A stretch of DNA of 64,000 bases from Escherichia coli (lineage in GTDB: Bacteria > Pseudomonadota > Gammaproteobacteria > Enterobacterales > Enterobacteriaceae). A program made the position numbers. Location: NCBI RefSeq assembly GCF_003991155.1, contig NZ_CP031297.1; one strand, 5' to 3'. Numbering within the stretch: the stretch's first letter is position 1; each line of letters starts with the position of its first letter. Positions 6,001-9,000 of the stretch are shown one piece after another.

Positions 6001-9000
6001 TCAGGTGCTGTTGATTCGTTCTTCCAGCCTGTAGAGCAGTTTGTTGATCAACTCATTGACCAGCTCAAAGAGCAAGTCAAAGAAGTGATGATGGATGTCA
6101 TGAAATCAGCAGGCCAAGATGCAGCAACAGAGCAGGCGGCTGCCGCAGCATCTGAACAAGCTGCCGAAGCAATGATGGAGACTGCGACAACATGGCTTAG
6201 CACTGCCATGACGATATATACCGTCTATGTCGTTGCGATGGTGATGATCCAGATGATTTATAAGTGCGAGGAAGAAGAGTTCACTATGAACGCAAAAAGA
6301 GCGCTCAAGAATTGCACCTATGTAGGCTCTTATTGTAAATCTAAGGTGTTGGGCGCTTGTATTGAAAAAAGAGAAGCGTATTGCTGCTTCAATTCTCCGC
6401 TCTCTCGTATTATACAAGAACAGGTTCGCCCTCAATTGGGGCAGAACTTTGGAGACCCCAAAAATCCTCAGTGTGAAGGGATTCCACTAGATAAAATTGC
6501 CGAAATTGATTGGAGCAAAATTAATTTGGATGAGTGGCTTGGGATATTACAGCAGAACGGTAAATTCCCTGATCCGGCCTCAATAAATCTCGACTCGCTG
6601 ACTGGAGCAGGGAATGACTTCAATATTGACGGGACGCGGAAGAATGCTCAGGAAAGGGCGTTGGAGCGGTTGGAAGGGATTGATATTGACGCGAAGCGAA
6701 AAGAGGCGACAAACAGCATAGACCCTCAAACAGGCGCGCCAACTGGTGGTGGATAAAAAAAGGGGCCTTTCGGCCCCTTTCTCATGTAGATTGATTACGC
6801 TTCTGGGTAAACAAATAACTCTGCTTTTCCCTGATCAAGAAGGTAAGGGAAAGCAACTTTTTCGCCATTATCCAGCTCAACCGATTTTGGAGCAAGGTAG
6901 AGGTAGGCCCAAGCTGGTAGCTGTTTGCTAATAGCTGCGTAGATCGCTTGCTGAGGAGCATGGCTTGCTGCCCCATTACCGACATTCACAAAGTTGTATG
7001 CGGTCTCATGGCCTGATGTGAAGGCATACGCTGTACCTTGAACGCCAGAGACAAAATTAGGAGCTGACCCTAGGCGAGGCTCCACGATTTTCACCTTAAC
7101 GGAACACATGTCAGCTACCTTACTTTGTCCGTTCACCCACGTCGGGCAACCCCATTCATTCTTGTAGAACTGATAGGTTAGGCGACCGTCTTTGTCATAC
7201 AGAAGCGTGAAATTGGCACCCAAATCAGTCAGCGCTGACTCAATGGAAACTTTCACATGTGAAAGAAATTTGGCCTGAGCGTCTGCCGGTGAAACTGCTT
7301 CGTTAGCAGGCATCCAAGCGATCAAGCTATTGCGAGCGCCATGCTGTTTGGGGCCGATAGCCCAGTTCGCAAGGTTGACCAAGCCACCTTGCCAGTCGGT
7401 CATTCCGAGCTGAGGGGACATGTAGCCAGACAGCACGTAGGCTGCCCCAAACGTTTTGGTGTCGGTCAGACGCTCCAGCTTGTCACGCGGAACAGAAGCG
7501 TCTTGGATGCCTGTTACCAGGCCACCGGCCTCCGCGATGTTGTAAGCGCGACTGTGATTGGTTTTGTACGCTGTGGGTTCGTAACTGCTGGTGGATGCAC
7601 AGCCAGATAGAGCTGCTACAGCCAGAGCCACGGTGGTGATTAAAGCCTTTTTCATGTTGTTCTCCGTTCTTACCTGAGTTGAATCTGATTTACTTCGATA
7701 ATATCACAGCATCAAAAAATGCAACCATAAAAGACAAAAAAAAGCCCCTCGGGCGAGGGGCAAAGGTTTGGGCTGGGTTATGCTGCTTTTGTTTTCTCGG
7801 CTTCGTCTGCGATTTCCTTGTCGCCGGTTGCAGATTCCGGAGCGGCTTCGGCCACTTCACCTTCTTTGCCTTTGCTGTGGGCGGAAATGCGAGCCCGTTT
7901 CTCGATGCCGATGATTCGACCGGCCAGCTTGATGAGGCGTTGCTGCCATTGGTAAGTGGCGTCGGTGCGCTGCTTGCTGGTCAGTACGGTGTTCAGCCAG
8001 AGAGTGTCAACGATCCCCATCAGGGTATCCAGTTTGCGGATCAGGTGTGCAAACTGAGCAACCTGAGGAGAGTTGATCTCGATGGTGTATTCATTCGGGT
8101 TGGTGTAGCCGGGCATCATGTCGATGCCGTTGTCTTCCATCAGCTTGTTGAGCTGGGCGGTAGCTTTGTCCAGGTCTTCGGAGACCTTGGAAATGTGTTC
8201 CAGGATGACGGTTTCAACCTGGTCGATTTCGTCCTGCTCACCGATGATGCGAAGGATCACGTCGATGGAGAACAGGGAGTTGGAAACTCGCTCAAAGCTG
8301 CGTTCCATGACGCGCTGAGCTTGGAGGCTGTTTACTTTCAGAACTTGCTTGAAAACAGGGCGAGAGTAGTGGTTGCTGCGGTCGTTGTTTGTGTCCAGTG
8401 CTACTTGTGCTTCTGCCATTAGAGATACTCCTAAATTTGAGGTACAGATAAACGCACTGGAAAGGATAAATGCGGTCAATCTGTAACCTGACCTCTCGAA
8501 GTGCCCAAAATGGACAGTTACAGCGTTTTCTGTTTAGCAAAGGTGAGCTATATTTGAATCATCTTAGTCGCTCTGCGGCTATAGGTGAGATAGCTGGTCT
8601 CCGAAAACAAACAGCATCTAGTCTTATGCCGTATGGCATTACTTAACCCCAAGCCGGGGGCTTCTCCCGGTTTTCGGGTGTTGCCCCTGTTTTTTTTACA
8701 TAGGAGCAACACCATGCACATCATCACTTTCATTGTAGTTCTGCTTGCATCTCTGGGCGCACTGTACGTAGGCGCGAAGGCATTTGCTTTTTCCTTCATC
8801 GTTCTCGCTAAAGTGTTCCAGCGTATCGGTTTGTTCCTTTGGAACAAATTCGCAGTTCCTGCAATGCGGTCTGTACAGGCCGTCATCAAAGAACGTGCTG
8901 CCAAGGCTGAACAAGCCAAAGCAGTCGTTGAACCTGAGGTAACTCAAGTTCAAGAAGTCGCTAAACAAGAACCTGACTGGGATTATCTCGAAATCCCGAC

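Follow-up and report, generated by a model that had tools for sequence, protein, structure and literature searches.

Two minus-strand genes between traN and vcrx087 of an IncC plasmid from Escherichia coli very probably represent the exclusion gene sfx and the AcaCD-dependent activator gene acaB

Introduction

Exclusion in IncC plasmids has been fully explained by two genes, sfx and eexC (Rivard et al., 2024; PMC11493245). In that study the gene vcrx085, "flanked by traN and acaB" and encoding a lipoprotein of 286 aa, was identified as sfx and found to be both necessary and sufficient for the residual exclusion; its product was located in the outer membrane and was required in the recipient only, while the specificity of Sfx exclusion was determined by TraN of the donor. 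Expression of sfx was constitutive and independent of AcaCD and exceeded that of eexC about 150-fold; the authors proposed that Sfx masks the receptor of the cognate TraN on the recipient surface. A counterpart that works in a similar way is TraT of the F plasmid: like Sfx, it is a lipoprotein abundant in the outer membrane of the recipient, and it destabilises mating pairs, although TraN determines specificity for Sfx and not for TraT (PMC11493245).

The work of Hancock et al. [quoted passage not shown] In pVCR94, the region between vcrx086 (acaB) and vcrx087 carries a single ChIP-exo peak with AcaCD motifs on both strands, and 5'-RACE located divergent transcription starts at 64976-64978 (acaB) and 65081-65083 (vcrx087) (Carraro et al., 2014). 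The functional evidence cited here for acaB and sfx stems from the plasmids pVCR94 and pMS6198A.

The window analysed here is a stretch of 64,000 nucleotides of contig NZ_CP031297.1 (assembly GCF_003991155.1) from Escherichia coli. We conclude with high confidence that the interval between traN and the plus-strand array downstream of it holds two independent and already characterised genes of the IncC backbone, sfx and acaB, the latter encoding an AcaCD-dependent activator.

Results

Plasmid context and gene order

A 2-kb query across the interval matched 795 plasmids, 713 of them at an identity of at least 99%, and in nearly every case the matched plasmids were typed as IncC, conjugative, MOBH and MPF_F. 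Judged by its sequence, the window is IncC (IncA/C2) plasmid backbone. In annotated IncC plasmids all genes from traL through traN to the ssb-bet-exo array lie on the plus strand with the exception of two, and these are the two minus-strand open reading frames found between traN and the array (Table 1). A preliminary description of this DNA, made from the sequence alone, had placed them at exactly these coordinates (6795-8419) and had called them the only minus-strand genes of the backbone part, which is correct for the section from traL through the array. Further minus-strand genes are present elsewhere on the plasmid. The product of vcrx087, the gene that opens the array, had no Pfam match, and a PADLOC scan of the sfx and acaB proteins and their neighbours gave no relevant match.

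Table 1. Features of the interval between traN and vcrx087 (positions in the window).
Feature	Position	Strand	Description
traN	3949..6756	+	935 aa, mating-pair stabilisation adhesin; NCBIfam PRK14876 TraN, 1846 bits
Terminator of sfx, probably shared with traN	6757..6785		GGGGCC-GAAA-GGCCCC followed by U7 on the minus-strand RNA
sfx (vcrx085)	6795..7655	-	286-aa outer-membrane lipoprotein; ATG at 7655, last base of the stop codon at 6795
Candidate sfx promoter	7698..7724	-	-35 TTGCAT 7724-7719, 15-nt spacer, extended -10 TGATATTAT 7706-7698
acaB terminator	7744..7761	-	GCCCCTC-GCCC-GAGGGGC followed by U8; 7-bp stem with 6 G-C pairs
acaB (vcrx086)	7778..8419	-	213 aa; ATG at 8419, end of the open reading frame at 7778
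acaB promoter core	8453..8468	-	-10 TATCCT 8468-8463, start at about 8455-8457, leader of about 37 nt
AcaCD boxes	ca. 8493..8526		Overlapping, for both divergent promoters; core TGCCCAAAATGGACAGTTACAGCG 8502-8525
vcrx087 promoter core	8549..8562	+	-10 TATATT 8549-8554, start at 8560-8562
Repeat copy 1	8565..8616	+	Within the 5' leader of vcrx087; core 8583-8621
Copy 1, hairpin A	8565-8581	+	
Copy 1, hairpin B	8587-8601	+	Stem 8587-8590/8598-8601, loop TAGCTGG 8591-8597
Copy 1, tail	8602-8616	+	A/C-rich, ending in CAGCA
vcrx087	8714..9034	+	106 aa; opens the plus-strand array

The 213-aa protein

All 213 of 213 residues of the protein encoded by the upstream minus-strand gene agree with the crystal structure PDB 6N8B, deposited as "transcription regulator AcaB" (E 1.1e-135), and on this sequence identity the protein is AcaB. 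It does not differ in sequence from AcaB of pMS6198A or from the vcrx086 product of pVCR94 (PDB 6N8A, 6N8B), and in pVCR94 acaB occupies the same slot between sfx and vcrx087 and has the same AcaCD box and divergent promoters. The gene order sfx/traN, acaB and vcrx087, with acaB divergent from the ssb-bet-exo array, is also found in pAhD4-1 and pTUMSAT-OK1. The earlier remark that the protein is charged agrees with its composition (27.7% D/E/K/R), and its pI is 5.2.

The Pfam family PF08900, formerly DUF1845 and now named "Transcriptional regulator AcaB", scores AcaB at 14.4 bits (E 0.033, residues 72-154), which is below the gathering cut-off of 27. This is a case of a model that is poor at detecting its namesake and is no argument against the identity of the protein. 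The PGAP label "AcaB family" is carried by syntenic proteins of 26% identity on other MOBH plasmids. Two alternative gene models were rejected: a 233-aa form of acaB starting from TTG at 8479 is excluded, as that codon is located upstream of the mapped transcription start (about 8456), and a 247-aa plus-strand open reading frame (7679-8422) is an antisense shadow of acaB.

The 286-aa lipoprotein

The downstream minus-strand gene matches vcrx085 of pVCR94 in length (861 bp) and position; from this length, the synteny and the near-identical IncC DNA we infer that its product corresponds to Sfx94 of pVCR94. The exact sfx sequence was present on at least 1000 contigs, and the protein shares 73% identity, across 269 aa, with the experimentally tested Sfx homologue of pAhD4-1 (Rivard et al., 2024). 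Its assignment as a lipoprotein in the preliminary description is borne out by a lipobox, L-S-G-C19 (MKKALITTVALAVAALSG-C19), in which G18 and C19 are invariant across 33 homologues; the residue at position +2 is Ala and not Asp. No Pfam or NCBIfam family was assigned to Sfx, and searches of these databases showed no relationship to TraT; Rivard et al. (2024) likewise found none. Searches with a structural model of Sfx gave no informative fold match, and a match of residues 29-75 to AI-designed TIM barrels in the PDB was disregarded, as no stretch passed alone.

A likely promoter of sfx was located by its sequence upstream of the gene (Table 1), the sfx paper giving no definition of the sfx promoter (PMC11493245). 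The 17-nt core of this candidate, GTTGCATTTTTTGATGC, recurs identically upstream of eexC, where the -10 element (TAAACT) is weaker than that of sfx, and also precedes the sfx homologues of two distant loci. The candidate is consistent with the published constitutive and AcaCD-independent expression, and the published RNA-seq values of sfx (508 in the wild type, 535 in the acaCD deletion and 1904 in the complemented strain, differences not significant) agree with such constitutive expression.

Divergent promoters under AcaCD control

The transcription starts published for pVCR94 were transposed to the window by gene offsets, which gave the acaB and vcrx087 starts listed in Table 1. The box core TGCCCAAAATGGACAGTTACAGCG between them has no mismatch to a consensus derived here from published AcaCD sites, and the published footprint of AcaCD, from -64 to -37 relative to the transcription start, fits both the plus-strand start at 8562 and the minus-strand start at 8456. 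Published expression values of acaB were 450 in the wild type, 17 in the acaCD deletion and 1093 in the complemented strain, and those of vcrx087 were 1454, 5 and 3445, respectively. The acaB-vcrx087 promoter region was also included in chromosomal lacZ reporter assays, and vcrx087 is classed in the literature as activatable by AcaCD/SgaCD.

The repeat element in the vcrx087 leader

The preliminary description had noted that the 213-aa gene diverges from the first copy of a repeated element, and the core of copy 1 indeed lies on the opposite strand across the intergenic region. The accompanying characterisation of the repeat as promoter-like did not hold. Relative to the mapped vcrx087 start, the core of copy 1 occupies the positions 21-59 nt downstream and is thus part of a leader and not a promoter, and the genes downstream are silent without AcaCD. 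The run of genes from vcrx087 to vcrx096 is fully dependent on AcaCD, yet the only AcaCD box in that run is the one at vcrx087, and the published expression of genes that follow internal repeat copies was 0-9 without AcaCD and in the thousands with it. From 8.4 to 28 kb only one strong plus-strand terminator (17753-17782) was found in the array, and there were three sigma-70-like promoters, against 13.3 expected. No -35/-10 match was reported at the repeat, and its reading as a sigma-70 promoter is ruled out by the position of the vcrx087 start and the AcaCD dependence. Comparison by eye with a sigma-54 promoter consensus gave no match, and a single-stranded-DNA promoter is unlikely, the 4-bp stem being too short to mimic a -35/-10 pair.

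Among the matches listed, a start codon preceded by a Shine-Dalgarno sequence follows 92 of 132 non-redundant elements at 25-149 nt (median 96), and the consensus module consists of hairpin A, hairpin B, the A/C-rich tail, a long hairpin C, a ribosome-binding site and ATG. The most economical reading is that the repeat is a leader or intercistronic RNA element inside long AcaCD-driven transcripts, for which processing, stability, antitermination or translation are candidate roles.

The hallmark of the repeat is a covarying hairpin with the loop TAGCTGG and the tail AAACAAACAGC. The window has seven copies, all on the plus strand (0.02 expected by chance), which include internal copies at 9627, 14462, 22708, 26490 and 32747, and a degenerate eighth copy at about 29639; in the one complete IncC plasmid examined the repeat was confined to the array region, and pAhD4-1 and a plasmid of Vibrio penaeicida likewise carry multiple copies of it. 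An exact-pattern scan of representative genomes detected it in at least 120 stretches, the hosts among the matches listed including Rhodocyclaceae, Accumulibacter, Sulfuritalea, Rhodospirillaceae, Pseudovibrio, Photorhabdus, Marinobacter and others; the repeat is widespread in Proteobacteria.

The search pattern fixed the loop and the tail by design and left the stem unconstrained. At least 4 bp flank the invariant TAGCTGG loop in 102 of the 123 distinct matches listed, where about 2% would be expected by chance, and 22 stem types were present among the matches listed. Covariation of the stem was 0.44, compared with 0.11 in shuffled controls (0 of 500 as high) and 0.05-0.10 with slid partners; the 56 distinct copies used for this were chosen for at least four pairs, so that the percentage paired follows from the choice and the number of stem types does not. 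Since the GCTG of the loop is complementary to the CAGC of the tail, a pseudoknot between them is possible, both partners of this candidate being invariant by the design of the search. The covariance models of Rfam 15 did not match any copy at E<=1 over 29.5 kb, or a single copy at E<=10, and none of the papers found in a literature search prints the repeat sequence. The repeat core resembles the ops element at 9 of 12 positions, and its architecture resembles that of preQ1-I pseudoknots; Rfam gives no support for this, and no claim is made from either likeness.

Relationship between AcaB and the repeat

The preliminary description had suggested that the 213-aa protein regulates the downstream array. 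It is a regulator, being identical to AcaB, but its documented target is Pacr1 and not the adjacent array, and AcaB controls the array indirectly, through AcaCD. One alternative is that AcaB is a local regulator acting directly on the repeat and so controlling the plus-strand array. AcaB is a transcription regulator, and its divergent pairing with the repeat was kept in all 34 loci compared, in which the AcaB homologues share 28-100% identity and come from Gamma-, Beta- and Alphaproteobacteria: no repeat copy shared the strand of acaB, all of them lay upstream of it, and the distance between the acaB start codon and the first copy was usually 160-220 nt. The repeat was also present on a Comamonas plasmid whose AcaB homologue is 40% identical. 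The array genes that follow repeat copies are moreover silent in the acaCD deletion; as acaB is also off in this deletion, the published data confound the dependence of these genes on AcaB with that on AcaCD.

Several findings nevertheless make such a direct action quite unlikely. Pacr1, which lies beside traG and eexC and beyond the window, is the only AcaB target documented in the summaries of the original work, and a search of the Pacr1 region found no copy of the repeat. Copy 1 lies downstream of the vcrx087 start, and the stem of the repeat covaries like a nucleic-acid hairpin, unlike an operator in duplex DNA. In addition, the lacZ assays covered the acaB-vcrx087 promoter region, the literature places vcrx087 with the AcaCD/SgaCD-activatable genes, a shared bidirectional promoter region of the AcaCD type can explain the conserved pairing, and no equivalent repeat was found nearby in two plasmids with AcaB homologues of 25-26% identity. 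A small probability is retained for the direct link because the pairing is conserved. In a wider form, which we regard as rather unlikely, a second, conserved function of the AcaB family would be linked to the TAGCTGG-hairpin leader that heads the divergent array; for example, AcaB or an AcaB-dependent factor could act on the hairpin and so permit expression, read-through or processing of the ssb-bet-exo array. The layout of acaB, about 200 bp, the first hairpin and the array is kept in mobile elements of Gamma-, Beta- and Alphaproteobacteria.

Terminators and transcription units

As the preliminary description had stated, each of the two minus-strand genes has an intrinsic terminator of its own (Table 1), and folding bore out both hairpins. 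The one beyond sfx forms a 12-bp hairpin on the minus-strand RNA (dG -20.4 kcal/mol, z -4.85) and was missed by the terminator scan because the stem extended into the flanking A/T runs. It is probably bidirectional, serving traN as well as sfx, since it lies between the convergent stop codons of traN and sfx and folds on the plus-strand RNA too, as a 9-bp hairpin followed by UUUCUC.

Regarding the grouping of the lipoprotein and 213-aa genes into one divergently transcribed unit, a single sfx-acaB operon with joint expression and function is highly improbable: the genes are neighbours on the same strand with a gap of 122 bp and are syntenic in most related plasmids, but a strong terminator separates acaB from sfx, published RT-PCR already contradicts one operon in that acaB and sfx are separate transcripts, AcaCD leaves the constitutive expression of sfx unchanged while acaB shifts about 60-fold, the two functions are unrelated, and sfx is found without acaB on mobilizable islands and is located elsewhere in pAQU1 (PMC11493245).

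Discussion

Two independent genes with separate controls would act as follows. Sfx, made constitutively from its own promoter, would be exported by way of Sec and signal peptidase II to its anchoring site in the outer membrane, where in a plasmid-bearing cell it would reduce uptake from donors with TraN of the same exclusion group; in the model of Rivard et al. (2024) this may occur by masking of the receptor on the recipient surface through which TraN stabilises mating pairs. Bound at its box (about 8493-8526), AcaCD would fire acaB leftward and vcrx087 rightward, and AcaB, binding upstream of Pacr1 beside traG, would raise acr1-acaDC transcription, such that a positive feedback loop from AcaB to AcaCD and back to acaB would turn conjugation on. 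The terminator at 7744-7761 would prevent the inducible acaB transcript from entering the constitutive sfx gene.

The functions of both genes have already been published, and their recognition here is a rediscovery. By amplifying AcaCD, AcaB serves as the switch for conjugation in a major family of multidrug-resistance plasmids, and Sfx restricts redundant passage of the plasmid among cells that have it already. The value for annotation is that hundreds of deposited plasmids still list both sfx and acaB as "hypothetical protein", and that the Pfam family named after AcaB misses it.

The neighbouring repeat, a widespread and strongly covarying hairpin leader that is absent from Rfam, merits the attention of specialists and deserves a separate evaluation; it both heads and punctuates the AcaCD-dependent array.

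Repeated leader hairpin

The leader module that recurs along the plus-strand array forms a covarying hairpin with an invariant TAGCTGG loop and at least 22 stem types among the matches listed, followed by the motif AAAYAAACAGC, and a start codon typically lies about 96 nt downstream. The module was found in many mobile elements of Gamma-, Beta- and Alphaproteobacteria, and in the fetched loci holding an AcaB homologue it is always divergent from the acaB homologue. It corresponds to no family in Rfam and was not found in the searchable literature; it is probably a structured RNA leader that has so far gone undescribed. 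Alternatively, because homologues of the 607-aa primase are encoded in 13 repeat-carrying loci, the TAGCTGG hairpins could be single-strand priming signals.

Besides this putative RNA leader, the window contains a second repeat family of hairpin form (AACCCCACGGGGG...CCCCGAGGGG) that lacks a U tract. At 29518-29552, directly upstream of the vcrx114 AcaCD box, Rfam gives a weak hit to ctRNA_p42d, scoring 30.3 bits where the gathering score is 50 (E 0.0057); this is probably no more than a hairpin.

Features of the window and of two comparison sequences
Sequence	Positions	Feature	Details
Window	7698-7726	sfx upstream region with extended -10	Shared core
L004 (carrying eexC)	30268-30284	eexC upstream region	Shared core
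Window	8565-8616, 9592-9660, 14427-14495, 18259-18327	Repeated leader module	Copies 1-4
Window	22673-22741, 26490-26528, 32712-32780	Repeated leader module	Copies 5-7
Window	about 29631-29665	Repeated leader module	Degenerate copy
Window	9066-9096, 12240-12270, 18965-18995, 22209-22239, 31737-31767	Second repeat family	G+C-rich hairpins
Window	33579-35402	Primase, 607 aa	End of array; primase zinc ribbon, DUF7146 and Toprim domains
L127 (Citrobacter plasmid)	429-7507	acaB-like gene and array layout	

Implied transcription units of the array

Between 8400 and 28000, the plus-strand array is poor in sigma-70-like promoters, with 3 found where 13.3 would be expected. The one strong intrinsic terminator on the plus strand of this stretch, at 17753-17782, stands shortly before the AcaCD box that follows (about 18153). 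Judged from these sequence signals, array transcription units would be about 9-11 kb long.

AcaB, Sfx and the candidate exclusion gene promoters

The distant MOBH plasmid L127 encodes an AcaB homologue of 26% identity in the same layout, with traU, the acaB-like gene and a divergent ssb-recT-exo-MoxR-DUF3150 array; however, a different AT-rich repeat adjoining ribosome-binding sites takes the place of the TAGCTGG hairpin. Regarding annotation, at least 1000 contigs label AcaB (7778-8419) and Sfx (6795-7655) as 'hypothetical protein', 'Lipoprotein' or 'DUF1845', the real AcaB falls below the threshold of PF08900, the Pfam model bearing its name, and the PGAP name 'AcaB family' is given to 26%-identical proteins. 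For both proteins, database annotation thus trails published knowledge.

An identical 17-nt core, GTTGCATTTTTTGATGC, including a -35-like TTGCAT, lies upstream of both IncC exclusion genes, sfx and eexC. [quoted passage not shown]
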